A DNA stretch of 64,000 nucleotides. Origin: Candidatus Peribacteria bacterium. GTDB taxonomy: Bacteria; Patescibacteriota; Gracilibacteria; UBA1369; LOWO2-01-FULL-3. Shown one piece after another: positions 23,278 to 56,550 of this stretch. Positions within the stretch are counted from its first letter, which is position 1. Each line of letters opens with the position of its first letter. The stretch spans positions 2,013 through 66,012 of the forward strand of contig CALRGJ010000003.1 of the NCBI GenBank assembly GCA_943357285.1, given 5' to 3'. Position numbers and translations under genes: made by a program. Below the pieces are notes generated by a model, which had not been told where the DNA came from, made no database searches, and saw nothing but the letters and a program-made list of their open reading frames with translations.

Positions 23278-24663
23278 ATGTCAACATTACCAAAATTCGA
23301 AAAACCAGAGCTTTTATTACCTGCAGGGAATCTATCAAAATTGAAGATTGGTCTTCAGTATGGTGGCGATGCTTTCTTTTTGGGTTTTAGCCCATTTAGT
23401 TTACGTTGTAATGATAATGGTTTTACGATGGAGGATTTGATTGAAGGTGTGAAATTGATTCGTGCAGCCGGAAAGAAATTTTACGTAACGATGAATATCT
23501 CTCCGCGCAGTGAAAAGATGGAGGCTATTAAAAAACATTTAGAATTTTTGAAAGACGAAATTAAGCCAGATGCGCTTCTAGTAGCGGATCCTGGTATTTT
23601 TGAATTAGTGCAGGAATTCTATCCTGAGGCTGTGGTGCATATGTCTGTTCAAGCGAATATTTTGAATTATAGAGGTGTGGATTTTTGGAGAAAACAAGGT
23701 GCTGAGCGTGTGATTTTGCCTCGCGAATTAACATTGAAGGATATTAAAGATATTCATGAAAAAGTTCCTAAAATTGAATTGGAATTCTTTGTGCATGGAG
23801 CGATTTGTATGGCTTATAGTGGCCGTTGTTTGCTTTCTAATTATATGACAGGCCGTGATTCAAATCAGGGTGCTTGTTCTCATAGTTGTAGATGGAAATA
23901 CAAGGTTTTGGATGAAAAGGGTGTGGAAAAAAGAGAAGCGGAATTAGCTAGCGGTGAAAAGAGTTGGAATGGATTGGAGGGAAAAGATAAGAAGGAAGTG
24001 GAGGAAGTTCGTTCAAAGACAATGTATCTTGAGGAAACAAAACGTCCAGGAAAATTTTATAAAGTGGAAGAAGATGATCATGGAACCTATTTTATGAATT
24101 CAAAAGATAATTGTTTATTGCCTTATTTGAGAGATTTGGCTGAAGCGGGAATTTGTAGTTTTAAGGTAGAAGGAAGAAATAAAACTGAATATTATTTAGC
24201 GACTGTGGCAAAAACTTATAGAAAAGCTATTGATGATATGATGGCAGGAAAGCCATTTGATGAGAAATTACTCGAGGAAATTGGCAAGACTGCGAGTCGT
24301 GGATTCATTCCAGGATATTTGTTCGGATACCCTGATGATAATGATACAAACCATGCTAGAAGTTCTTCAATGCAGGACTGGAAATTTGTGGGAATTGTGA
24401 TGGGGGAGGCAGCTGGATTTACTGATGGGGAACATTATGAGATTTCTGTACGTAATCGTTTGGATAAAGGAAAAGAGATTGAAGTAATGACTCCGGATGA
24501 CCAATTTGCTTTGATTGCGGAAGAGATGTGTGACTTGAATGGTAAAGAGGTCGAAGCGATACATGGAGGCGCTGGAAACCGCGTTATTCGTTTAAAAAAA
24601 GGCGTTCCGGTGGGTGCAATGATTAGAGCGAGATGTGAAGAAGGTGAGAAAGGGGAGAATTAA
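23278..24663 (+). CDS. Peptidase U32 family protein (RlhA/TrhP/UbiU-like Fe-S enzyme family)
   Basis: 'ELLLPAGNL..LK.GL.YGGDAFFLG' N-terminus and the conserved Cys cluster 'CMAYSGRCLLSNY...GACSHSCRWKY'. Confidence 0.85.
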   Translation: MSTLPKFEKPELLLPAGNLSKLKIGLQYGGDAFFLGFSPFSLRCNDNGFTMEDLIEGVKLIRAAGKKFYVTMNISPRSEKMEAIKKHLEFLKDEIKPDALLVADPGIFELVQEFYPEAVVHMSVQANILNYRGVDFWRKQGAERVILPRELTLKDIKDIHEKVPKIELEFFVHGAICMAYSGRCLLSNYMTGRDSNQGACSHSCRWKYKVLDEKGVEKREAELASGEKSWNGLEGKDKKEVEEVRSKTMYLEETKRPGKFYKVEEDDHGTYFMNSKDNCLLPYLRDLAEAGICSFKVEGRNKTEYYLATVAKTYRKAIDDMMAGKPFDEKLLEEIGKTASRGFIPGYLFGYPDDNDTNHARSSSMQDWKFVGIVMGEAAGFTDGEHYEISVRNRLDKGKEIEVMTPDDQFALIAEEMCDLNGKEVEAIHGGAGNRVIRLKKGVPVGAMIRARCEEGEKGEN

Positions 24664-25169
24664 GAGTGAAGCTTTAATTTCTCAATTATTGCTTCGCAAT
24701 CTTTTTCGATGTTTTCGCTGCGTTCAAAAATGATGGATGCGCTTTCACAGTAGCGACTATTTCTTTCTTTGTAGATTTGTTTCATCTCTTCTTCGACGGA
24801 TTCTTTATTTGTGAGAGGAGGGCGGTTTTTATCTTTGAGAATGCGGGCTGCGGCGATTTCTGGTTTTACGTAGAGGTAGATGATTTTGCCATTTTTTTTG
24901 AAAGCTTTTTCGTTTTCTTGGTCGAGAATAGTTCCGCCACCGGTAGAGATGACAGTGTTTTTTAATTTGGCTGTTTTTTGTGCAACTTTGGATTCTAAGG
25001 CGCGGAAGTATTCCCAGCCACGTGAGTCTATTATTTCTGGAATTTTTTTCTTTTCTTCTTTTACGATTTCTTCGTCAATGTCGACGAAATTCATCTTTAA
25101 TTTCAGTGCTAGTATTGAGCCGATTTTGCTTTTACCGCTGCCACGAAGGCCGGTTAGGACTATATTCAT
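24660..25169 (-). CDS. aroK: Shikimate kinase
   Basis: P-loop 'LTGLRGSGKSKIG'. 169 aa. Last gene of the aro cluster. Confidence 0.85.
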   Translation of the reverse strand: MNIVLTGLRGSGKSKIGSILALKLKMNFVDIDEEIVKEEKKKIPEIIDSRGWEYFRALESKVAQKTAKLKNTVISTGGGTILDQENEKAFKKNGKIIYLYVKPEIAAARILKDKNRPPLTNKESVEEEMKQIYKERNSRYCESASIIFERSENIEKDCEAIIEKLKLHS

Positions 25170-26431
25170 TTTTGGATTTTTTTTAGATCTTGCCAGAATG
25201 TAGGGTAGCTCTTTGAAACGCAGGATGGATTTTCTATTTTTAGGTTTTTAATTATGGACGTGAGAATGCCAAAGGACATGGCGATACGATGATCGTTGTA
25301 AGTAGCAATTTTAATTAATTTTTTATTTTCAACTTTTTTTAGTTCATTAATTTCTATCCAGTCTTTGCCGGTTTTTACTGTTGCTCCTAATTTTTTTAAT
25401 TCATTTTCTAAGGCTTGAAGACGATCTGTTTCTTTAATGCGTAAATTGGCTATATTTGTGATTTTTGTGCTGCCATTTGTAAACAAAGAGGTGATGGCAA
25501 AAGTCATTACTAGATCTGGAGTTTCGTTCATATCTATGGTGCCAAGGGACTTGAGAACTTTTGGTCCTTCGACGATTGTTCCAGATTTATTTTTCTTTAT
25601 TTTGCAGCCTATTTTTTGAAGATATCTCAAAAATTTTATGTCTCCTTGCAGAGAATTCTCATGAATATTTTGTAAGAGAATTTTTTGTGAATAAATTGCG
25701 GCAAAGGCACCAAAGTATGAAGCAGATGAGGCATCACTTTCAATAATATAGGTCTTAGGGGATTTTGGTTTTTGCTTTGGAGTTATTGTGAATTTTTTGA
25801 AATTTTGGTTATAAACTTTGAGTCCAAATTTATTCATGACTTTAATTGTCATGGCAATATATGGCTTAGAGCAGAGATCTTCGGTGATATTTATAATGGT
25901 TTTATTTTGCGCGAATGGGGCGATCATCAAGAGCGCAGATAGATATTGACTGCTAATATTTCCTGGTAGATTTACTTCTCCACCTTGTAAAAGTTGTGGA
26001 TAAATTTGTATTGGAGGATAACAACTTTTAGTTTCTATTTTTGCTCCGAGTTTATTTAAAGTTTTTGTGAGTTCTGAGATTGGGCGTTCGCGCATACGAG
26101 AGTCGCCGTCGATGATAATCTCATTGCCGGTGAGAGTGGATAAGGCTGTAAGAAAGCGCGTAGTTGTGCCAGCGTTACCGGTAAAAAGGTTTGTTGTTTC
26201 TCCTAATTGTGGAAACTCTAATTTGCCTTTGTCATTCACTCCGGTGATTTTGACCGTGCTATTTTTTTGCTGAATTCCTATGCCTAATTTTTTTAAATTA
26301 GCGATTAAATAATTTGTGTCATCGCAAATCGCCACATTCTTTATTGTTGTAGTTCCTTTGCTCAAAACTGCGAGAATTATTGCTCGATTGCTATGACTTT
26401 TTGAGCCTGGAATGTTTATTTTTTTTAGCAT
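25166..26431 (-). CDS. aroA: 3-phosphoshikimate 1-carboxyvinyltransferase (EPSP synthase)
   Basis: 'PGSKSHSNRAIILA', 'LFTGNAGTTTRFL', 'DHRIAMSF'. Confidence 0.92.
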   Translation of the reverse strand: MLKKINIPGSKSHSNRAIILAVLSKGTTTIKNVAICDDTNYLIANLKKLGIGIQQKNSTVKITGVNDKGKLEFPQLGETTNLFTGNAGTTTRFLTALSTLTGNEIIIDGDSRMRERPISELTKTLNKLGAKIETKSCYPPIQIYPQLLQGGEVNLPGNISSQYLSALLMIAPFAQNKTIINITEDLCSKPYIAMTIKVMNKFGLKVYNQNFKKFTITPKQKPKSPKTYIIESDASSASYFGAFAAIYSQKILLQNIHENSLQGDIKFLRYLQKIGCKIKKNKSGTIVEGPKVLKSLGTIDMNETPDLVMTFAITSLFTNGSTKITNIANLRIKETDRLQALENELKKLGATVKTGKDWIEINELKKVENKKLIKIATYNDHRIAMSFGILTSIIKNLKIENPSCVSKSYPTFWQDLKKIQK

Positions 26432-26604
26432 TTCACGCTGTAGCTATCTTCATTGTTCTTTTTTAGAACCCAAAGTCCGCCGTCTTCTTTTTTCCCGCTA
26501 AAAACTTTGCCATCATCTGCATTTTCTATAGTCTCTTCTCTTGGTACTTTTAGTGCACCAGCTTTTGTTAATTCTTCTAGTGCTTCACGGAGATATGGGT
26601 TCAT
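26425..26604 (-). CDS. Small hypothetical protein embedded in the aro operon
   Basis: The internal ATG at 26604 gives a 59-aa product (MNPYLREALEEL...). It starts 10 nt after the aroB stop and overlaps the aroA start by 7 nt. The longer track ORF would overlap aroB. Confidence 0.4.
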   Translation of the reverse strand: MNPYLREALEELTKAGALKVPREETIENADDGKVFSGKKEDGGLWVLKKNNEDSYSVKC

Positions 26605-26614
26605 GGTGTTTAAG

Positions 26615-27658
26615 TTAAATTTTTTGATTATAAATAATTGCGTTGCCAATTTTTGTTGGCAAAATGAAATTGATAGATTTGCCGTCACTTTTTTTATCGG
26701 TGGTGAGGTTTTTCATTGTTGGCTTGTACATACTGTAGACTGGTAGGCCAGCTTGTTCGAGTAATGCCTTAATCCTGTCAGCATCTTTTTGTTTTAGAAG
26801 TTTTTTTGCTACAGCCATTTCGTTAGCGATTACCATTCCAATACTGATGGCATAGCCGTGGAGTAGAGTGTAGTTGGACATTGTCTCTAGTGCATGACCA
26901 TAGGTGTGACCGTAGTTTAGTAACATACGATTTTTCGCCTCCTTTTCATCATTTTCTACTACCTCAACTTTGATTGCGATAGATTTTTGAATGATATAAT
27001 TAAGAACTTTTTCGTCGTGATTAAAAACTTTTGAAAGATTTTTTTCGAGGTAGCTGAAGAATTTTTCGTCTTTAATTACTCCATATTTGATAATTTCTCC
27101 AAGTCCATTTCTGATCTGATTTTCAGGTAATGTTTTGAGTAAATTAATGTCAATGAAAACAGCTTTCGGTTGAGTGATTGTTCCTAGTAAGTTTTTACCA
27201 ATTTTCAGGTCTACTCCAGTTTTCCCACCGATGGCTGAATCAACCGCGGCTAAGAGAGTGGTAGGAATTTGAACAAAGGGAATTCCACGTAAATAAATTG
27301 AGGCAAGGAATCCTGCAATATCTCCAACTACGCCTCCGCCGAGTGCGATAATGGCATCTTTACGATTGAAACCTTTTTCTACCATTGACTCGGCAAGCTC
27401 TTCAATTGTGCTCAGTGTTTTTGATTTTTCACCGGATTCAAAAGAAAAAATCTCATTCTTAATTCCATTCTTATTAAGAAATTTGGAAATAGTTTGGCCA
27501 TGAATCTTTGCTGTTTTTGAATCTGTAATGATGGCATATTTTTGTCCGAGATTTATTTTTTTCAAAAGGCTTGGTAATTTATTTACCACACCTTTCTCGA
27601 TGAAAACTTTGTAGGAATCATCTATTTCTTTTTTGTGTTTGGCTTGAATGATAGGCAT
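26615..27658 (-). CDS. aroB: 3-dehydroquinate synthase
   Basis: 'GGGVVGDIAGFLASIYLRGIPFVQIPTTLLAAVDSAIGGKTGV', 'NYGHTYGHALE'. Confidence 0.93.
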   Translation of the reverse strand: MPIIQAKHKKEIDDSYKVFIEKGVVNKLPSLLKKINLGQKYAIITDSKTAKIHGQTISKFLNKNGIKNEIFSFESGEKSKTLSTIEELAESMVEKGFNRKDAIIALGGGVVGDIAGFLASIYLRGIPFVQIPTTLLAAVDSAIGGKTGVDLKIGKNLLGTITQPKAVFIDINLLKTLPENQIRNGLGEIIKYGVIKDEKFFSYLEKNLSKVFNHDEKVLNYIIQKSIAIKVEVVENDEKEAKNRMLLNYGHTYGHALETMSNYTLLHGYAISIGMVIANEMAVAKKLLKQKDADRIKALLEQAGLPVYSMYKPTMKNLTTDKKSDGKSINFILPTKIGNAIIYNQKI

Positions 27659-27667
27659 ATACGCTGA

Positions 27668-28681
27668 TTATAATGTCTTTCCGACCGCTTGTATAATTGG
27701 TTTTAAACTTTCGAGCATTTCGGCGAAACGAGCCGGAGTAATTTGTTGTTGTGCATCTGATAAAGCTTTTTCCGGATTTGGATGAACTTCAATGCAAATT
27801 CCATCTGCACCACAGGCAATTGCTGCTTTGCTCATTGGTTCTAATAATGATCTTTTTCCTGTCGCATGAGATGGATCTACGAGAATTGGCAAATGACTTA
27901 ATTCTTTTACAAGTGGCACAGTGGCGAGAGCAAGAGTGTTGCGGGTGTCAGTTTCAAATGTGCGAATGCCGCGTTCGCAAAGAATTACCTGAGGATTGCC
28001 ATGAGACATAATGTATTCAGCGGCGAGGAGTAATTCTTCAATAGTTGCTGAGAGTCCACGTTTCAAAAGCACAGGCTTTTTTACTTTTCCAAGTTCTTTT
28101 AGTAGTTCGAAATTTTGCATATTGCGCGCGCCAACTTGAATCATATCACTTTGTGCAGCGATATTGTCGAGATCGCGAATATCTAGAATTTCTGTAATTG
28201 TAGCCATGCCGTAGCGATCGGCTGCTTCGCGCATCATTTTCAATCCTGGCTTTCCGAGGCCTTGGAAAGAATATGGACCGGTGCGAGGTTTGTAGGCGCC
28301 ACCGCGAAGAATTTTTACTCCTACTTTGGAGAGTTCACGAGCGACTTCTTCCATTTGTTCTTCTGATTCTACGGAGCATGGTCCAGCAATGATTGCCAAT
28401 TGATTACTACCAATTTTTACGCCATTTACTTCAATGATGCTTGGGTCGTGTTTTGTTTCTTTGCTGACGAGTTTGTATGGATGAACGACGCGCATTACTT
28501 TCTCTACGCCTGGTAGGGCTTCGAGGTGTCCTATGCTCAAGTCTCTTTCTTCGCCAATGACGGCGATGACGGTGCGTTCTACACCGTAGAGAGGCATTGG
28601 AGTGAGTCCAATGGATTGAAGTTCTTCAATAATTCTTAGTGCTTCTTCTTTCGGTGCGCCGGCTTGCATTACGATAATCAT
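27668..28681 (-). CDS. aroG: 3-deoxy-7-phosphoheptulonate (DAHP) synthase, type I-beta with N-terminal ferredoxin-like regulatory domain
   Basis: 'IIAGPCSVESEEQ', 'GGAYKPRTGPYSFQGLG', 'LKRG', 'LCERGIRTFE', 'DPSHATG'. The N-terminus 'MIIVMQAGAPKEEALRIIEEL' matches the Thermotoga-type regulatory domain, so ATG 28681 is preferred over the track start at 28726. Confidence 0.9.
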   Translation of the reverse strand: MIIVMQAGAPKEEALRIIEELQSIGLTPMPLYGVERTVIAVIGEERDLSIGHLEALPGVEKVMRVVHPYKLVSKETKHDPSIIEVNGVKIGSNQLAIIAGPCSVESEEQMEEVARELSKVGVKILRGGAYKPRTGPYSFQGLGKPGLKMMREAADRYGMATITEILDIRDLDNIAAQSDMIQVGARNMQNFELLKELGKVKKPVLLKRGLSATIEELLLAAEYIMSHGNPQVILCERGIRTFETDTRNTLALATVPLVKELSHLPILVDPSHATGKRSLLEPMSKAAIACGADGICIEVHPNPEKALSDAQQQITPARFAEMLESLKPIIQAVGKTL

Positions 28682-28709
28682 GGGGTGGGGGTTAAAAAAT
28701 GGGTGAAAT

Positions 28710-28734
28710 AAAAAAAATAGCCTCATTTGAGGCT
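28710..28734 (-). terminator. Attenuator terminator in the aro operon leader
   Basis: On the minus strand: AGCCTC-AAAT-GAGGCT followed by A and eight T. It lies 29 nt upstream of the DAHP synthase ATG. Its 5' arm is also part of an alternative 13-bp hairpin. Confidence 0.65.
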
Positions 28735-28764
28735 TAGATAGAAAAATTAATCTAAAGGCCTCAA
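28727..28764 (-). promoter_or_regulatory. Antiterminator hairpin of the aro leader
   Basis: On the minus strand, TTGAGGCCTTTAGAT (28764-28750) pairs with ATCTAAGCCTCAA (28739-27). This gives 13 bp with a 2-nt bulge. The hairpin sequesters the terminator 5' arm. Confidence 0.6.
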
Positions 28765-28767
28765 AAA

Positions 28768-28848
28768 TTAGCTAAAAAAGTAAAAGAAAGCCCAGTTAAA
28801 AGATTTGTTTTTTGCGAGGTGTGCGATTTTTTGGCTTTCTTGTCTCAT
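28768..28848 (-). CDS. Candidate aromatic-rich leader peptide (MRQESQKIAHLAKNKSFNWAFFYFFS)
   Basis: 26-codon ATG..TAA ORF translated by hand from the minus strand. It is too short for the ORF track. Seven of its last ten codons are Phe, Trp or Tyr. The stop codon lies 3 nt before the antiterminator 5' arm. Confidence 0.55.
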   Translation of the reverse strand: MRQESQKIAHLAKNKSFNWAFFYFFS

Positions 28849-28870
28849 GAAATTTTTATGTTGTGTCTTC

Positions 28871-28899
28871 ATAATATTTGGATAAAATGCCTTTGTCAA
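28871..28899 (-). promoter_or_regulatory. Sigma70-type promoter of the aro operon
   Basis: On the minus strand: TTGACA (28899-28894), 17-nt spacer, TATTAT (28876-28871), about 22 nt upstream of the leader ATG. Confidence 0.65.
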
Positions 28900-28918
28900 T
28901 TTTTAAGATTTGAAAGCT

Positions 28919-30307
28919 ATGGGTGGAGAAGTTGGAAATAGAGATAGGGTGATTGAGGATATTATTTCTACTAGGTTGAAGCCGGATTCAGATAGGCAGC
29001 CTTATTTTGTGCTTCCCACTAATGGAGGTCTTGAGGGAGCCGATTTATCACAGATTTTGGATGGAGAAGTAATTGAACGTTTGTCTTCTACAAGAATGAG
29101 TGTCTTGAGACAGATGGGATGGGACGGGGATGCTGTTATGAGAGGCTTGGGTGATGGAAGTTTATCTAGGTTTTTTCAGGCGGATCTTTTGAAATTATTG
29201 GATAGAAATAAGGCTTGTTTAGGTATAACGGGAGGTGGTGATTGTGCTGGAATATCTGATTGTTTGGCTTCGTTTGCTCAAAATTTGAGTAGAGATAAAG
29301 TGATGCTTGGTGTGCAAAATGCTAGTGAGGGTTTAGCTCTGCATCCTGATCTTTTTCCTAATAATTTGATTTTAGTTGATAGTTTAGTGCGTGCTGATAT
29401 GGTTGGTCGTGGCAGTACTCCATTTGGATCTGCTCGTTTGAATGCTTTCGATAATGATGCTCAGAATGTTTTGGATAATGTTAGATACTTTGGTGCTGTT
29501 TATGGAACTGGTGGAAATGGGGGGTTGGCGATGTTAGAAAGAATTGCTAAAGAATTTCCTGAAAGGTGTGTGGTCGGAACTTTTAAGAGTATTGATGGTG
29601 ATGGTTTGATTGATGGTAGGCCTACGCAAATGCTTGGTTTTAATACTGCTGTTCGTGCAAATAGACATGCAGTTTATGATATTGCTCAGAGCGCATTTGC
29701 TCATGGTACGGTGGATGTGGTGGAGGTGTTTGGGCGAAATTATGGCAGGTTAGCCTTTGAGTCTGCACGTCACGATAATTTGGCCGTGGCAGATGAAGGT
29801 AGAGATTTAAGGAGGAAAATAGAGGAGCTTGGTCAGATTATGCTTATTTTAATTCCAGAGAAGCCCGCTTCAATGAGAGATGTAGCTGCAGAAGTTCTTG
29901 AAAGAAAAAAAGAGTTTGGTAGTTGTGTTGTAGTTGTTGCTGAGGGTTTTATCCCGACAGATTATTCTAATGGTTCTCATAGTAAAGTTAGTGATCATAT
30001 TGCTGATGGATTAAAGCAGTTTGCTGGTTTAAATAAAGTTAATGTTACTACTCAAACTCGTCAGGCAAGAGGTACAAGGCCTTCATATTATGATAAAATG
30101 ATGGGTTTGAGGATTGGAAATAAGATGGCTGAATTGGTGAATGAAGGAGTGGTGGGTGGAAAGGCTGTGGTTTATTTTGAAGGTGTTGATGCGATGCAAA
30201 ATGATCCAGAGGTAGTGGATTTGCATGGTGTTTCTCAAGGTAGTACGTTATTGAGTCTTCATTCTGATGAAGTATTAAGGAAAGGTGGAGTGTTTTGGAA
30301 GGATTGA
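28919..30307 (+). CDS. Divergent phosphofructokinase-family (PFK, PF00365-like) protein with N-terminal extension
   Basis: Blocks align to PFK: 'GITGGGDCAG' (GGDAPG), 'RGSTPFGSAR', 'GTGGNGG' (GGDG), 'FKSIDGDG' (TIDND), 'VVEVFGRNYGRLAF' (VEVMGR), 'VVVVAEGF'. Confidence 0.6.
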   Translation: MGGEVGNRDRVIEDIISTRLKPDSDRQPYFVLPTNGGLEGADLSQILDGEVIERLSSTRMSVLRQMGWDGDAVMRGLGDGSLSRFFQADLLKLLDRNKACLGITGGGDCAGISDCLASFAQNLSRDKVMLGVQNASEGLALHPDLFPNNLILVDSLVRADMVGRGSTPFGSARLNAFDNDAQNVLDNVRYFGAVYGTGGNGGLAMLERIAKEFPERCVVGTFKSIDGDGLIDGRPTQMLGFNTAVRANRHAVYDIAQSAFAHGTVDVVEVFGRNYGRLAFESARHDNLAVADEGRDLRRKIEELGQIMLILIPEKPASMRDVAAEVLERKKEFGSCVVVVAEGFIPTDYSNGSHSKVSDHIADGLKQFAGLNKVNVTTQTRQARGTRPSYYDKMMGLRIGNKMAELVNEGVVGGKAVVYFEGVDAMQNDPEVVDLHGVSQGSTLLSLHSDEVLRKGGVFWKD

Positions 30308-30328
30308 TTAATGTGTTAAATTGGTTTC

Positions 30329-31177
30329 ATGCTAATAGATACACACGCACATATAATGTTTCCGGAGTTTGATGAAGATAGAAAAGATGTTATTGAACGT
30401 GCAATGGATGCGGGATTGGAGAGGATTGTTTGTGTGGGGTGTGGGGCTGCGTCTTCCGAGGCGGCAGTAAAAATGGCGAAAGAAGATAAAGATGGTTTTT
30501 TGTATGCGACTGTTGGGCTTCATCCCTATGATGCGATGGATGTGACTGATGGGCTTTTGGCAGAATGGGAGAAATGGATTGTGGCGGACAAGGAAAGTGG
30601 TGCGCGAAAAATTATTGCAATTGGGGAAACTGGTTTGGATTATTTTAAATCTAAAGTCGATCCTGAAAAACAGAAATTTTCTTTTAAAAAACATATAGAA
30701 TTGGCGGTGAAAATGGGACTGCCGGTGATTGTACATAATCGTTCGGCGGATGAGGATTGTTTAGGGTTGTTGAAAGAGTTTAGTAGGGGTGGAGAGTTGT
30801 ATAAAAAAATTGTTCAAGATTGTGGTTGTGATGGAGAAAATATGATTGAACCTGTGAAGGCAGTTTTCCATTGTTATGGTTCTACTTTGGAATTTGCCCG
30901 CAAAGTTTGGGAGGCAGGATTTATGACTTCATTTACAGGAATTATTACTTATCCGAGTGCGAAGGAATTAAGGGAAGTGGTGAAGGAAGTCCCTTTAGAT
31001 AAGTTCATGGTGGAGACAGATTGTCCTTATTTGGCGCCACAAGGACATAGAGGAAAGAGAAATGAACCATCCTATGTGGTGGAAACTGCCGAGAAGATTG
31101 CGGAAGTGAAAGGTATGGGTCTAAGTGATGTGGAAAAACAGGTGATGGAAAATACCAAAAAGTTTTTTGGATTTTAG
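30329..31177 (+). CDS. tatD: TatD family metal-dependent hydrolase/DNase
   Basis: 'LIDTHAHI', 'IGETGLDY', 'PVIVHNRSA', 'METDCPYLAP'. Confidence 0.9.
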   Translation: MLIDTHAHIMFPEFDEDRKDVIERAMDAGLERIVCVGCGAASSEAAVKMAKEDKDGFLYATVGLHPYDAMDVTDGLLAEWEKWIVADKESGARKIIAIGETGLDYFKSKVDPEKQKFSFKKHIELAVKMGLPVIVHNRSADEDCLGLLKEFSRGGELYKKIVQDCGCDGENMIEPVKAVFHCYGSTLEFARKVWEAGFMTSFTGIITYPSAKELREVVKEVPLDKFMVETDCPYLAPQGHRGKRNEPSYVVETAEKIAEVKGMGLSDVEKQVMENTKKFFGF

Positions 31178-47606: not shown

Positions 47607-49071
<1,465 letters not shown>

Positions 49072-49264
49072 TATGGAGAACAAAGAGTTGCAAACTTATG
49101 GGTTGGTTAACCACTCATAAGAATGCAAAATTCTTATGGTCGAACTGTCTACTTCGGTAGATAGTTACAAAAAGTCTCGATAGCAATATCGAGCAAACAA
49201 GTCCAGTCGCAAGACTGGCAAGACTCATTTTTTTCTCTATTACATTCTGGATGTTAAGGACAAA

Positions 49265-49291
49265 GGACCTCGTTGGAGGTCTTTTTCTTTT
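49265..49291 (+). terminator. Rho-independent terminator ending the 16S transcription unit
   Basis: GACCTC-GTTG-GAGGTC perfect 6-bp stem followed by TTTTTCTTTT. It lies just after the 3' half of the 16S processing stem. Confidence 0.7.
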
Positions 49292-49307
49292 GTGAAATTG
49301 ATTGTGC

Positions 49308-49342
49308 GCAAAAAAAAATAGACTCTCTTGCGAAAGTCTATT
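49308..49342 (-). terminator. Terminator hairpin (repeat copy 1), minus-strand sense with a plus-strand T-run as well
   Basis: TAGACTCTC-TTGC-GAAAGTCTA flanked by A9 on the left and TTTT on the right. It lies about 30 nt downstream of the stop of the minus-strand gene 49368..50414. Confidence 0.6.
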
Positions 49343-49367
49343 TTGATTTGAATAATAGGTGAGAGCT

Positions 49368-50414
49368 TTAAAGTTCTTTTACTTCTCCATTACTGAAGTT
49401 GTATTCAAAGTTGTGTTTATTTTCAAATCCTTGGAATGAAAGGGTGTATTTTAGTATGTTTCTGTTTTGATCGTATCCATTGCATCCAAATACTAAAGAA
49501 CCTGTCTGCTGTAGATTTTTCTCTAATTCAAATGATGGAACAGATGAAATGTTGACCTTTCCTTCATGCATTCCTGATCCAGAGCAGTTGTAGAAGTGCT
49601 TCATGTCATAGGTGAATCCATATAAATCTCTTTGATTATCAATATCATGCACTACTTTCTTTTGCTTGATGTCATATACTTTTCCAGTAGCTGATTCCCA
49701 TCCACTTTTCCAATAGATAAGGTATTCTCCACCAGGAGTTATTTCTACATTATTGAACTCAGAGTTTTTCGTCACATCTTTTTGGTATTTTTTTGCTGTA
49801 TCAATAATTGTTTTTTTACCATTTTCTACGAGGAATAGGGTAGTTGTAGCTCCGTCTTCACCGTATACAAATCTGAGGGCGGGTGATTCATTAGTTGAGG
49901 TGGAAGAGATTGTATTCAAAAGTTTACCTTCAACTTGCATTAATACACGATATTTTTCTATTGAATCGTCTTTGTTGGTCAATTCTACGAGAAAATCATA
50001 TTGATTTGGAGCGACCTCTATAAAATCTAGAAATTTAGTGCTCTTTAGGTTGGTGTACCAGCTTTTGAAAACACTAAAATCCATTTTCTTATACTTTTTC
50101 ATGTCGTATGCTGCTTGGTAATTGCCTTCTGCTAAATTGTTATAATAGAGTGTAATTAGTTCTTGTCCTGCAGAAGTTGTTTTACTTGTTTCGCCTGTTT
50201 TTACTTCTGTAACTTTACCTGGTTCAATTGTTGGTATTCCGTTAATTATTTTTGTTTCTTCTATGCTTTGTGTTTCTACTTTGTTTTCAGTTGCATCTTC
50301 TTTTTCTGATCCGTTCTTGTAGTTCATTGCTGCAAACCAGGTGAGTGCAATTATTCCTAGAATGCCTAGTACTATCAGTACGGCGTTGAGGGCTTTTTTA
50401 CTATTTTGTTCCAT
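49368..50414 (-). CDS. Membrane-anchored hypothetical protein
   Basis: 348 aa. N-terminal TM 'ALNAVLIVLGILGIIALTWFAAM'. No recognisable catalytic motif. Confidence 0.5.
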   Translation of the reverse strand: MEQNSKKALNAVLIVLGILGIIALTWFAAMNYKNGSEKEDATENKVETQSIEETKIINGIPTIEPGKVTEVKTGETSKTTSAGQELITLYYNNLAEGNYQAAYDMKKYKKMDFSVFKSWYTNLKSTKFLDFIEVAPNQYDFLVELTNKDDSIEKYRVLMQVEGKLLNTISSTSTNESPALRFVYGEDGATTTLFLVENGKKTIIDTAKKYQKDVTKNSEFNNVEITPGGEYLIYWKSGWESATGKVYDIKQKKVVHDIDNQRDLYGFTYDMKHFYNCSGSGMHEGKVNISSVPSFELEKNLQQTGSLVFGCNGYDQNRNILKYTLSFQGFENKHNFEYNFSNGEVKEL

Positions 50415-50467
50415 AGTTTGAAATTAAAGATTTAGACTAATTAAGATCTTAGCACAGACCTTTTCAC

Positions 50468-50503
50468 AACAAAAAATAGACTCCCTTGCGGAAAGTCTGT
50501 TTT
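50468..50503 (-). terminator. Terminator hairpin (repeat copy 2) after tRNA-Ala
   Basis: AAAAAATAGACTCCCTTGCGGAAAGTCTGTTTT is about 88 percent identical to the copy at 49308..49342. On the minus strand the hairpin has a GCAA loop and is followed by TTTTTTGTTG. Confidence 0.55.
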
Positions 50504-50507
50504 ATGA

Positions 50508-50584
50508 TGGTGGAGCTGAAGGGAGTCGAACCCTTTACCTCCTCGGTGCAAGCGAGGCGCTCTAGCCAAGTGAGCTACAGCCCC
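50508..50584 (-). tRNA. tRNA-Ala (anticodon TGC), CCA encoded, opposite strand to the rRNA genes
   Basis: The reverse complement folds as acceptor GGGGCTG/CAGCTCC with a G3-U70 pair, anticodon stem-loop CCTCG-CTTGCAC-CGAGG, T-loop TTCGACT. Confidence 0.92.
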
Positions 50585-50599
50585 ATAAGGAACAGCGGT

Positions 50600-50628
50600 A
50601 TATTACGGAAACTGTCTTTTCTTTGCAA
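50600..50628 (-). promoter_or_regulatory. Promoter for tRNA-Ala
   Basis: On the minus strand: TTGCAA (50628-23), 17-nt spacer, TAATAT (50605-00), 15 nt upstream of the tRNA 5' end. Confidence 0.5.
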
Positions 50629-50647
50629 GATAAAATTGAAAATTTAT

Positions 50648-51508
50648 TTATCTGCTTGTATCTCTTATCTCGTCTTTTTTGTCTTCAATCTTTTCTTCTC
50701 TAATATTTTGTTTTGTTCTCTTGTAAAACTTATCGTCGAATTCTGCGCGTACCTCAGAAATCTCTTCCATAGCTTTTTCTCTCTTTGTCTTTTTTCGAGT
50801 TGTTACTTCTGTTTCTAATTCTGTTTCTACTTTCGTTTCTGCTTTCGTTTCTACTTTCGTTTCTACTTTCTCAGCGGTATTTTCTTCTCTTATGCTAAGA
50901 GTGGTAGTGGTTGGAATTTCTTTCATAAGCTGAATTGGAGTGCTTGATGGTGCAGCCATAGGTAATTCGATCCTAGTTGGTGCTGGATTTCTAGTCTTTT
51001 TTACTGTTTTGACTTCAATCATTTCATCTATCTCTTCTTCAGGTACAGCTAATGCTATAGTGGAAGCTCTTACTATTAGATTGTCTGTTTCTTTAATGGT
51101 TTTTTCGTCTATAACTCCTTTTCTTTCTAGTACGGCTAGTTCGCGCATTCTTCTCTTGGCCATTTTCTTGTAATAGTTTGATTTAGCTTCAGGAGTAGTG
51201 GCAAATGTTTCTTCCACTTTTTCTGTACTAATTTTGAGAGGGTATAGAATGCTTCCATTTGTTACGTTGTCATTGCCGTAAGCATATATGGTAGTTGAGC
51301 TAAAAATCACTAATACAAAAGTAGCTGTGATCTGAGTCTTAAATCTCCAAATTCTTTGGAAGAATGGGATTCTTGGTGTCTCATATTGAGTATGGAAACG
51401 TTCACGCAATTTTACTTTGAGCATTTGTTCAAAGTTTTTATCTGGTTTAGCATCTTGAGAGATACTATTTAAGATTTTTTCTAATTGTTCGTGATTGTTG
51501 GTCTCCAT
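50648..51508 (-). CDS. Anti-sigma-factor-like single-pass membrane protein with (x-E-T-K)n repeat
   Basis: Its start overlaps the ECF sigma gene stop by 1 nt. TM 'ITATFVLVIFSSTTIYAY' at about aa 60. Near the C-terminus 'VETKVETKAETKVETELETEV' is encoded by a 12-bp tandem repeat. Confidence 0.5.
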   Translation of the reverse strand: METNNHEQLEKILNSISQDAKPDKNFEQMLKVKLRERFHTQYETPRIPFFQRIWRFKTQITATFVLVIFSSTTIYAYGNDNVTNGSILYPLKISTEKVEETFATTPEAKSNYYKKMAKRRMRELAVLERKGVIDEKTIKETDNLIVRASTIALAVPEEEIDEMIEVKTVKKTRNPAPTRIELPMAAPSSTPIQLMKEIPTTTTLSIREENTAEKVETKVETKAETKVETELETEVTTRKKTKREKAMEEISEVRAEFDDKFYKRTKQNIREEKIEDKKDEIRDTSR

Positions 51509-52029
51509 TATTCTGATTGATATTTGATTGGTTCGAGTTTTCTTTTTAGGTCTTGTAGAGTTCTATGGATTACTACTCTTATATTGTTTTCGTTGTCCTT
51601 GGTTATTTCGGCTATTTCTTCATATGAGTATCCGGAGAAGTATCTTAGTAGTATTAGTTCTTTCTTGTTGTCGGGTAGGGTTTCTATTGCTTCTTTGATG
51701 ATTTCTTTCTCTATTTCTTCTTGGGCTGCTTGTTTTGTGTCGTTCGGATCTCTTAGTTCATTGGCTAGATCATCTATTGAGCTGCTAGATTTATTCTTAT
51801 TTGAACGGAAGTAGTCGATTAGGTAGTTCTTAGTAATTTGGAATATCCATGATTTAAAGGCACCTTTCTCTCCATTATATTGTTCGAATTTCTCGATTGC
51901 CTTTAGGAATATATCTGAAACAATATCCTCTGCTAACGCCTTGTTTCTGTTCGTTCGCATGTAAACATATCCATAGACTTGTGGCATATGTTCCTCGTAA
52001 TATTTGTTGAATTCTTCGAAGTTTGGCAT
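51508..52029 (-). CDS. ECF-type RNA polymerase sigma-70 family factor
   Basis: Region 2 'ALAEDIVSDIFLKAIEKFEQY...FKSWIFQITKNYLIDYFR'. Region 4 'LRYFSGYSYEEIAEITKDNENNIRVVIHRTLQDLK'. Confidence 0.88.
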   Translation of the reverse strand: MPNFEEFNKYYEEHMPQVYGYVYMRTNRNKALAEDIVSDIFLKAIEKFEQYNGEKGAFKSWIFQITKNYLIDYFRSNKNKSSSSIDDLANELRDPNDTKQAAQEEIEKEIIKEAIETLPDNKKELILLRYFSGYSYEEIAEITKDNENNIRVVIHRTLQDLKRKLEPIKYQSE

Positions 52030-52093
52030 CGGTTACACAGCTAGGTATACTATATAAGTGTTGGAATATTACATCTTTTTAATAAATTTTTAA

Positions 52094-52651
52094 ATGCTTG
52101 AAGTTTTAGTTACATTTGTTTTCACTATTTTGATTGCTTTCACGGTATGGTTTTGGCTTAAGGTAGCCTTTTTAGTACTTCTTGTTGTTATTATTTATCC
52201 CGGTGTTTATGCCATGATTAAGGGCGCTCCATTTGTTCCTAGTATGGATAAGGCTATAAAGGCGATGATTAAATTGGGTAAATTTAAAAAGACGGATAGG
52301 GTAGTGGATATAGGATGTGGAGATGGCAAGGTAATAAGAAAAATTGCTAAAGAAGGAGTAAAGGAGGCGGTAGGATATGAGCTATCTATTCCCACTTTCT
52401 TATTGGCTAGGTTCCGAACTTTCTGGAGTGGGGGAAAGGAAAAGATTCGTTTTGGCAACTTTTGGTATCAAGATCTTTCTAAGTATGATGTGATTGTTTG
52501 CTTCCTATTAATAGAGGCGATGACGAATTTTGAAAAAGATGTTTGGCCAAAATTAGGAAAGGGGACAAGGGTTATATCTAATGCTTTCAAATTAAAGCAT
52601 GTTGAAATTACAGAGGAAAAAGATGGTGTTTATCTTTATATTAAAAAATAA
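52094..52651 (+). CDS. Class I SAM-dependent methyltransferase with N-terminal membrane anchor
   Basis: SAM motif I 'VVDIGCGDGKVIRKIA'. Hydrophobic N-terminus of about 40 aa. Confidence 0.7.
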   Translation: MLEVLVTFVFTILIAFTVWFWLKVAFLVLLVVIIYPGVYAMIKGAPFVPSMDKAIKAMIKLGKFKKTDRVVDIGCGDGKVIRKIAKEGVKEAVGYELSIPTFLLARFRTFWSGGKEKIRFGNFWYQDLSKYDVIVCFLLIEAMTNFEKDVWPKLGKGTRVISNAFKLKHVEITEEKDGVYLYIKK

Positions 52652-52711
52652 ATTGACTCCTGAGGTCCTTTCAAGTAACTTTGTCTTCGCTAATTTGTTT
52701 TATACATTCAA

Positions 52712-52788
52712 GGGCGAGTAGCTCAGGTGGTTAGAGCGCGACACTGATAATGTCGAGGTCGGAGGTTCGAGTCCTCCCTCGCCCACCA
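52712..52788 (+). tRNA. tRNA-Ile (anticodon GAT), CCA encoded
   Basis: Acceptor GGGCGAG/CTCGCCC, anticodon stem-loop CGACA-CTGATAA-TGTCG, T-arm GGAGG-TTCGAGT-CCTCC. Confidence 0.92.
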
Positions 52789-52807
52789 TTTATTTAACCT
52801 CAATTAA

Positions 52808-53053
52808 ATGGATAAGTTTCTAGCGTTAATAATTGGTTGCCCGTTGGGATTCGTTATTATGTATTTTCGCCGTTCCATTAAAGAGTTTATTGGGGAGGTG
52901 GGTTTTGCCGAACAATATTTGGGAGTGGGTGGTACAAATACTTTTGTAGTATTAATGGGGATGTTAGTTTTTATAGGTTCCTTAATGTATGCCTTGGGAA
53001 CTTTCCAGGCACTTTTGGGTGATTCCATCGGTTCGTTCTTTAATAGTAAATAA
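52808..53053 (+). CDS. Small two-helix membrane protein (hypothetical)
   Basis: 81 aa with hydrophobic segments 'FLALIIGCPLGFVIMYF' and 'FVVLMGMLVFIGSLMYALG'. The antisense ORF 52804..53028 is judged spurious. Confidence 0.45.
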   Translation: MDKFLALIIGCPLGFVIMYFRRSIKEFIGEVGFAEQYLGVGGTNTFVVLMGMLVFIGSLMYALGTFQALLGDSIGSFFNSK

Positions 53054-53121
53054 AAGTGCTGCGATTTTTTCGCATATCTAAGCGATTTTGATAGATTATA
53101 GAGTTTTTGTATAAAATGATG

Positions 53122-53150
53122 TTGACATTGTTATCCCTCATAAATATAAT
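53122..53150 (+). promoter_or_regulatory. Consensus sigma70 promoter for the 23S-5S unit
   Basis: TTGACA (53122-27), exactly 17 nt, TATAAT (53145-50), about 220 nt upstream of mature 23S. Confidence 0.75.
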
Positions 53151-53370
53151 GGCGAGGCATTTGGGATTGATAACAGATTGAAAATAAGAAACTTGATGCA
53201 GGAAAAATCAGCTACTTACCCTTTAGGTTCATGACTTTGTCTCTCAAAGTCGTAGCTTAAAGGGTGCGTAGCAATACACACCCTTTTTTGATCCTTGAAA
53301 ACTAGTGGCAATATAAATAAATTTTTTTTACCAATTACTAGTTAAAGTAATTGGTTCTCTGTAATTTCAA

Positions 53371-56370
<3,000 letters not shown>

Positions 56371-56435
56371 TTTTCAGAGAACCTTTATTTTGACTAGTAA
56401 TTAGTGAAAAAAATTTATATTTATAGAAGCCATCA

Positions 56436-56550
56436 TCTTGGTAGTTCTAGAGGCAGGGGTACACCTGTTCCCATCCCGAATACAGCAGTTAAGCCTGCCC
56501 TCGCCGATGTTACTGTGGTTTTCCCACGGGAAAGTAGGGCGCTGCCAAGA
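56436..56550 (+). rRNA. rrf: 5S ribosomal RNA
   Basis: TCTTGGTAG...CCCATCCCGAATACAGCAGTTAAGC...GGGAAAGTAGGGCGCTGCCAAGA. The terminal helix TCTTGG/CCAAGA is extended by flanking complementarity. Confidence 0.92.

Follow-up and report, generated by a model that had tools for sequence, protein, structure and literature searches.

Leader-peptide attenuation is textbook biology in the enterobacterial trpL, pheL (pheA) and pheM (pheST) leaders, where the regulatory codons lie in a short leader peptide and the transcript can fold into either a terminator or an antiterminator, each excluding the other; a ribosome that reaches the stop codon masks the antiterminator 5' arm, and a stalled ribosome permits antitermination. 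The 1:2 protector or pause hairpin, formed there by the first two segments of the leader, is a trait of the trp, his and phe leaders and not of all attenuators. Upstream of genes for 3-deoxy-D-arabino-heptulosonate 7-phosphate (DAHP) synthase, two elements of this general kind are described. The aroR-aroF leader of Corynebacterium glutamicum has been studied experimentally (Neshat et al. 2014, summarised in PMC11802643; first predicted in PMC4046766) and, according to that summary, consists of a short leader with aromatic codons (Phe-Tyr-Phe) upstream of an operon whose first gene encodes DAHP synthase, where ribosome stalling at these codons raises operon transcription and the end products of the common aromatic pathway are sensed. 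The uORFC-13-1 motif has been predicted ahead of aroF, both in Acholeplasma and in environmental sequences of unassigned origin, with 24 representatives (Brewer et al. 2021, PMC8632094). Here we describe an element found in a 64,000-nucleotide stretch of a Candidatus Peribacteria genome (assembly GCA_943357285.1, contig CALRGJ010000003.1, positions 2,013 to 66,012), which as a whole we call the window; the element stands directly before the DAHP synthase gene of a shikimate operon, and all coordinates of its parts and of the operon refer to the minus strand of the window. We conclude with high confidence that it is a ribosome-mediated (leader-peptide) transcription attenuator of the Peregrinibacteria common aromatic (shikimate) operon, by which the operon is very probably switched on when aromatic amino acids run short.

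The element begins with a sigma-70-type promoter (28871..28899), having the -35 box TTGACA at 28899-28894, a 17-nt spacer and the -10 box TATTAT at 28876-28871, which with 11 of 12 consensus matches ranks first among the 17 promoter-like sites of a consensus scan of 24000-31000 (7 kb) and from which transcription is predicted to start at about 28864; TTGACA and a -10-like box are also present in the relatives L161, L164 and L081. Next comes a leader open reading frame (ORF) of 26 codons, MRQESQKIAHLAKNKSFNWAFFYFFS (28768..28848; ATG 28848-28846, TAA 28770-28768), preceded by an in-frame ATG at 28872 that overlaps the -10 box and should therefore not be in the transcript. The last ten leader codons contain five Phe, one Trp and one Tyr, all of them within the regulatory tract F N W A F F Y F F at codons 17-25 (28774..28800). 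This short ATG ORF, placed between a promoter and an operon for amino-acid biosynthesis, is enriched in codons for the very end products of that pathway, and its aromatic density is the highest among the 775 small ATG ORFs of the window. An ORF with at least 7 aromatics in 10 residues arose in 22 of 5000 dinucleotide shuffles of the intergenic region, and chance is excluded as the source of this density.

The antiterminator hairpin (28726..28765; 5' arm 28765-28750, loop 28749-28740, 3' arm 28739-28726; -14.3 kcal/mol) begins 3 nt past the leader stop codon, or 6 nt after the first base of that stop. In it, TTGAGGCCTTTAGAT (28764-28750) pairs with ATCTAAGCCTCAA (28739-28727) over 7 + 6 bp with a CT bulge, and RNAfold extends the helix by one pair, 28765 with 28726. 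Between the leader ORF and the first structural gene lies an intrinsic terminator (28710..28734; -8.7 kcal/mol), composed of AGCCTC at 28734-28729, the loop AAAT, GAGGCT at 28724-28719, an A and eight T at 28717-28710, and its 6-bp stem and T8 are also picked up by a terminator scan. The terminator 5' arm sits within the antiterminator 3' arm, and since GCCTC is common to both, the two hairpins are mutually exclusive; the minimum free energy fold of the whole leader includes the antiterminator (z = -3.2 vs shuffles). Promoter, leader ORF, antiterminator and terminator are all present where the first-pass annotation of this DNA had put them, and the shared GCCTC agrees with its picture of two competing helices; its terminator stands as well, with a corrected distance to the DAHP synthase ATG at 28681, since the T-run ends 28 nt before that codon and not 29.

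The two hairpins also covary. The comparison set consisted of the upstream regions of 13 close relatives, whose DAHP synthases are 72-99% identical to that of the window. Among the 11 relatives scanned, nine have a terminator hairpin (-7.7 to -12.9 kcal/mol) with a T-run, and each of these terminators has its 5' arm overlapped by a hairpin of greater stability (-13 to -19 kcal/mol). On an unbiased MAFFT alignment of the whole leaders, RNAalifold gives an independent prediction of the antiterminator together with a further hairpin within the ORF, P1, with compensatory changes in 6 of the 14 predicted pairs. For the antiterminator 90% of cells are paired, against 30-54% in slid controls, and none of 500 shuffles reaches the observed value; for P1 and antiterminator taken together the figure is 85%, with 9 pairs changed on both sides, the same 30-54% in slid controls and no shuffle of 500 as high. 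For the terminator, 80.5% of cells are paired (slid controls 26-47%), 4 pairs are changed on both sides, and its covariation score is likewise reached by none of 500 shuffles.

A pair table anchored on the shared arm gives the most telling result, a three-way covariation: relatives carry G, A, T or C immediately 5' of CCTC, and both partners of this base, one in the antiterminator 5' arm and the other in the terminator 3' arm, change to match. The antiterminator and terminator pairs at this position are C-G and G-C in the window, T-A and A-T in L166, A-T and T-A in L168, and G-C and C-G in L082, and changes of the same three-way kind are found in L081 at +2 and in L169 at +3. Such a pattern is what one expects when selection acts on both of two alternative helices that exclude each other. 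The compensatory changes anticipated for both hairpins are seen in the MAFFT counts and in the anchored table. An arm-swap test, comparing the duplex energies of cognate and non-cognate arms, was strongly positive as well; it is not relied on because its arms came from each sequence's own fold, which makes it circular, and the anchored pair table and the counts on the unbiased MAFFT alignment took its place. No counts were taken from a short MAFFT alignment of the stretch between stop codon and T-run, in which three sequences were misaligned.

The leader ORF itself is conserved: an ATG ORF of 26-30 codons with an aromatic-rich end is found in 12 of the 13 close relatives, that is, in every one whose intergenic region is long enough (L171, L161-L163, L164-L167, L081, L168, L082, L083 and L169), which bears out the expectation of an F/W/Y-ended short ORF in related genomes. 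These leaders have 6-8 aromatics in their best 10-residue window and end, for example, in ...YFGWAFFYFSNS, ...SFGWFFGYFYFS, ...FFGWAFFYAYFA, ...FFVGAFYYGYFFTK, ...TFAGFYFAYFYA or ...SFWAFFNFYFS. In the last 13 codons, aromatic residues make up 54% of the reading frame, vs 17% and 32% in the other two frames, and synonymous aromatic codons are used freely (TTT 47, TTC 12, TAT 13, TAC 12). Each leader has 4-7 Phe codons, 1-3 Tyr codons and at most one Trp codon. The spacing is also kept: in 11 of 11 sequences measured, the stop codon (TAA, TAG or TGA) has its first base -4 to +8 nt from where the antiterminator 5' arm begins, and 8-14 nt separate the last aromatic codon from the arm downstream of it. 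With this geometry, and with ribosome footprints of the size we infer, a ribosome at the stop would mask the antiterminator 5' arm and a stalled ribosome would leave it free.

The closest relative, L171, deserves separate mention, since a leader ORF out of frame in a near relative had been named beforehand as something that could speak against a leader peptide. In L171 a 1-nt deletion does shift the frame near the ORF end (...FFYFLANY*), but the shifted ORF remains open as far as a TGA that lies within the antiterminator arm, and the element passes this natural test; the other differences of L171 are confined to hairpin loops and non-aromatic middle codons. The comparative checks named beforehand all turned out favourably: conserved ORF, covarying hairpins and a stop codon abutting the antiterminator arm together form strong comparative evidence in support of the attenuation proposed in the first-pass annotation.

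The P1 hairpin lies wholly inside the leader ORF (28784..28841), where AAGAAAGCC at 28841-28833 (codons 3-6) pairs with GGCTTTCTT at 28792-28784, the start of the aromatic tract. It is present in the minimum free energy fold of the window leader and of 11 of 11 relatives folded, with 79% of cells paired and 4 pairs changed on both sides, and this pairing accounts for the conserved K-E-S or K-S-P codons near the leader N-terminus. P1 does not compete with the antiterminator, unlike a 1:2 protector or pause hairpin; we consider it a candidate RNA-polymerase pause or synchronisation hairpin, which the translating ribosome would melt. A classical 1:2 protector was looked for and rejected: a CCTC-like motif in the middle of the leader of some relatives looked suggestive, yet the best duplexes of the upstream leader with the antiterminator 5' arm were no better than those of shuffles (z about -1.7 to +0.8). 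Without a protector, the design has three segments and an untranslated leader should read through. P1 also bears on which amino acids are sensed. All three aromatic aminoacyl-tRNAs had been proposed, which is only partly supported. Phe and Tyr codons dominate the leaders and are the robust signals; Trp sensing is less certain, because the single Trp codon is missing from two relatives (L168 and L082) and lies inside P1, for whose pairing it may be kept.

The following sequence of events is what these parts would predict. Transcription would begin near 28864 from the near-consensus promoter, and the 26-codon leader would be translated while transcription is still going on, with P1 perhaps pausing the polymerase until the ribosome melts the hairpin. 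When charged tRNA-Phe and tRNA-Tyr (perhaps also tRNA-Trp) are plentiful, the ribosome would run to the TAA. If its footprint reaches about 12 nt beyond the A site, a ribosome whose A site holds the stop codon would cover the first 6-7 nt or so, the outer part, of the antiterminator 5' arm, freeing GCCTC for the 6-bp terminator and U8, so that transcription would end about 28 nt before the DAHP synthase start codon. When an aromatic aminoacyl-tRNA is scarce, the ribosome would instead stall in codons 17-25, 12 nt or more short of the arm. The antiterminator, which is the more stable hairpin (-14.3 vs -8.7 kcal/mol), would form first, sequester GCCTC and block the terminator, and the polymerase would then read into DAHP synthase, aroB, aroA and aroK. 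The default state of such a switch would be ON, with the terminating ribosome acting as an anti-antiterminator.

Beyond the close relatives, we surveyed 154 distant loci among the matches listed, which encode the same DAHP synthase type at 50-58% identity; in these collection scans, one made with a DAHP synthase alignment against genome contigs and the other with the single protein against metagenome contigs, the only close relatives among the matches listed were L081-L083. An upstream ORF with at least 6 aromatics in 10, followed by a terminator, was found at no fewer than 18 of them (18 of the 154 distant loci listed, vs 0 of 154 on the reverse complement). The distant loci noted with aromatic leaders are L036, L055, L059, L073, L104, L108, L112, L113, L121, L127, L130, L135, L136, L149, L150, L154, L158, L160 and L008, and their leaders sit 150-350 nt upstream of the DAHP synthase match with strong terminators after them. 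In Acidobacteriota the peptide motif is ...F[ST]FRFW[YF]..., in Clostridia and gut metagenomes ...YFYFSAGYF..., and a complete Gracilibacteria chromosome has a leader ...ISFNFYFF* and then overlapping hairpins; the distant leader peptides are lineage-specific and unrelated in sequence. On balance, we lean towards regarding the window element as one member of a wide class, uncatalogued to date, of "aro leaders" before FXD-containing type I-beta DAHP synthase genes in many phyla. This class may comprise aromatic-codon leader peptides with terminator/antiterminator switches in Peregrinibacteria, Gracilibacteria, Acidobacteriota, Clostridia and others, and since its leaders are unrelated between phyla, it would have arisen or diverged repeatedly.

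A real attenuator might nevertheless be something other than an aromatic sensor, namely a mainly constitutive partial terminator or a coupling checkpoint that responds to general translation capacity and not to aromatic aminoacyl-tRNA. Such a device would suit a leader whose ribosome-free default is readthrough and which has no protector, for here any slowing of leader translation would raise readthrough; it would leave unexplained, however, why 6-8 aromatic codons in the last 10-13 codons are selected in every relative and why unrelated aromatic leaders of other phyla precede the same enzyme. This selection of aromatic codons, in relatives and in other phyla alike, argues for amino-acid specificity, and we consider the general-capacity device improbable.

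We think it equally improbable that the two hairpins belong to an RNA switch worked by a protein or a small ligand, whether a riboswitch or something T-box-like or TRAP-like, with the ORF being incidental. Aromatic-pathway genes of Firmicutes are often under T-box or TRAP control, and riboswitches, T-boxes and protein-dependent attenuators commonly use a terminator/antiterminator pair as their expression platform. Nevertheless, Rfam 15 searched over 27500-30000 at E up to 10 returned a sole and spurious match, HOTAIR_2, and no amino-acid leader or T-box family, and the scan of the whole window at gathering thresholds returned rRNAs and tRNAs only. No conserved aptamer-sized structure stands upstream, where the ORF occupies the region and its middle varies freely, and a ligand switch would not require a conserved ORF, frame-specific aromatic codons or the observed placement of the stop.

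Still less probable, in our judgement, is a reading in which the short ORF encodes a working micropeptide of aromatic or hydrophobic character, such as a membrane peptide, and has a terminator of its own, with the operon expressed independently or by leakage. The closer relatives do keep the C-terminal peptide motif (F/Y)FGWAFFY fairly well, and small ORFs are common here, with five relatives carrying another one before the DAHP synthase gene; a micropeptide would, however, leave unexplained the antiterminator-terminator overlap with its three-way covariation, a stop codon that stays fixed beside the antiterminator arm even after a frameshift, and the constant position directly upstream of the DAHP synthase gene, besides which the N-terminal conservation is accounted for by P1 pairing in the RNA, and the leaders of distant phyla have only aromatic richness and a terminator in common. 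As for a chance arrangement of T-rich intergenic DNA giving Phe codons and a random hairpin before a T-run, the genome is AT-rich (38% GC), terminator-like sites are not locally enriched and 10 of 154 reverse-complement controls reach 5 aromatics in 10, but the rarity of the observed density among shuffles, its frame specificity and above all an element conserved and covarying across 12 relatives effectively refute it and leave it a negligible probability.

Against the attenuator itself we set the following observations. The organism is uncultured and its element is read from sequence. The relative L170 has an intergenic region of only 72 nt and no leader, and in L164 and L165 the T-runs are degenerate. 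The terminator stem of the window is short (6 bp, -8.7 kcal/mol), and terminator-like patterns in the scanned region number 4 against 6.2 expected. Energy support for P1 is modest (mean z = -1.6 vs half-shuffled controls), and since the W-A-F-F stretch of the aromatic tract doubles as its 3' arm, some of these codons may be kept for RNA pairing. With no conserved protector, termination would depend wholly on tight coupling of ribosome and polymerase. Finally, the leader ORF has no Shine-Dalgarno (SD) sequence, and initiation on it is assumed. On this last point, an SD-like motif precedes only 2 of the 34 ORFs of at least 200 aa in the window, so that a leader without one is normal for this organism, although the 16S rRNA 3' end (49055-49071) bears the canonical anti-SD GATCACCTCCTTT; translation initiation seems to be largely SD-independent, as in Bacteroidota.

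The operon under this putative control (24660..28681) is assigned by Pfam matches, which confirm the four genes named in the first-pass annotation: a type I-beta DAHP synthase with an N-terminal ferredoxin-like (FXD) domain at 28681-27668, aroB at 27658-26615, aroA at 26431-25166 and aroK at 25169-24660. Relatives keep this gene order. The nearest database protein to the DAHP synthase, at 99% identity, comes from the Candidatus Peregrinibacteria metagenome-assembled genome GCA_026395515.1. The start of the DAHP synthase gene is set at 28681 because the FXD domain aligns in Pfam from residue 1 and all relatives begin with MIIVM. An in-frame ATG at 28724-28726, in the terminator loop, yields a spurious 352-aa DAHP synthase ORF with the N-terminal extension MRLFFLFHPFFNPHP, and automatic annotation could choose this ATG 28726, which would conceal the attenuator. 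In DAHP synthases of this type the FXD domain is known to mediate feedback inhibition by Tyr and Phe, and regulation would then act on both the transcript and the enzyme.

Several neighbouring features were observed besides. Every relative has a TAAC(C/A) motif 10-16 nt before its DAHP synthase ATG (28692-28697 in the window), and this motif could be an SD-less translation-initiation signal or an internal promoter element. In five relatives the stretch from the terminator to the DAHP synthase start contains a further small ORF, 18-33 codons long (L161 at 2925-2981, L081 at 2407-2472, and L168, L082 and L083 each 25-130 nt upstream of the ATG), ending near a conserved TG.GCCTATCRA (peptide ...C.Y[RQ]..); it is absent from the window, where only 28 nt are available, and RNAalifold gave no consensus structure for this region of the relatives. 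Between aroB and aroA lies a conserved 59-aa ORF, MNPYLREALEELTKAGALKV...SVKC (26604-26425), whose stop codon overlaps the aroA ATG; a Pfam search with it found nothing, and relatives have a 59-aa gene called at the same place. A phosphofructokinase gene diverges upstream of the operon. Elsewhere in the window the rRNA genes are split (47607-56550, plus strand), with the 16S at 47607-49071 and the 23S at 53371-56372 about 4.3 kb apart and the 5S following the 23S at 56437-56550; the gap between 16S and 23S holds a tRNA-Ala on the opposite strand (50508-50584), a tRNA-Ile (52712-52788) and two minus-strand ORFs (49368-50414 and 50648-51508).

Candidate phyla radiation bacteria are uncultured, have small genomes, and very little is known of their gene regulation. 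An attenuator here implies that aromatic precursors are made by this Peregrinibacteria lineage itself, which adjusts the pathway to the charging of its tRNAs, and it requires ribosomes close behind RNA polymerase in an organism almost devoid of Shine-Dalgarno genes. If true, the "aro leaders" would be the first sequence-level evidence that reduced candidate-phyla bacteria regulate genes through tight transcription-translation coupling despite SD-less mRNAs, and the distant loci suggest that genes for this enzyme type are widely preceded by the same, under-described solution. For annotation, the element is usable as a marker; it has no Rfam family, and gene callers either overlook the leader or start the DAHP synthase gene at a false upstream ATG. 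As to novelty, the first-pass annotation had known of no attenuator of this kind in a candidate-phyla genome or before a type I-beta DAHP synthase operon. The first part stands, for we found no paper tying Peregrinibacteria, Patescibacteria or the candidate phyla radiation to leader-peptide attenuation, and the element is apparently the first such one reported for this radiation; the second part was overstated, in view of C. glutamicum aroR-aroF, Acholeplasma aroF and the analogous leaders in other phyla.

In summary, the locus compares with the described systems as follows. With trpL, pheL and pheM it shares regulatory codons in a leader peptide, exclusive terminator and antiterminator helices and, as predicted, the masking of the antiterminator 5' arm by a ribosome at the stop and antitermination upon stalling. 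In the enterobacterial leaders, however, segment 1 pairs with segment 2 and an untranslated leader terminates, whereas here there is no such conserved pairing and a separate P1 hairpin lies within the ORF; there is no sequence or Rfam similarity, and the genes belong to the common pathway and not to a terminal branch. In structure, therefore, the locus has all that characterises leader-peptide attenuators except the optional protector, and it is not assigned by homology to any described family. With uORFC-13-1, compared by its description only (PMC8632094), it has in common a predicted upstream ORF with promoter, start codon and a U-run coding Phe, a place directly upstream of an intrinsic terminator and only before a DAHP synthase gene, and an extra base-paired substructure; uORFC-13-1, in contrast, has a ribosome-binding site and "at least one" Phe codon (PMC8632094), where we find no SD, 6-8 aromatic codons and a clearly resolved antiterminator.

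In function the element resembles aroR-aroF as it is summarised, in that both have a short aromatic-codon leader before an operon starting with the DAHP synthase gene, a rise in operon transcription upon stalling (predicted here) and a sensing of common-pathway end products (likewise predicted here). They differ in that aroR-aroF belongs to Actinomycetota and our element to the candidate phyla radiation, in that the aromatic tract takes up 7 of 10 codons, one Trp among them, vs the three codons given for aroR, and in that the C. glutamicum element has experimental support according to its summary, while the present one is known from its sequence and that of its relatives. The DAHP synthase is also of another kind, being here of the I-beta type with an FXD domain, whereas we take C. 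glutamicum AroF to be a different class I subtype. The functional analogy to aroR-aroF is clear and homology is unlikely given the phylogenetic distance; with a textbook mechanism and published DAHP synthase precedents, known biology is extended and not overturned.

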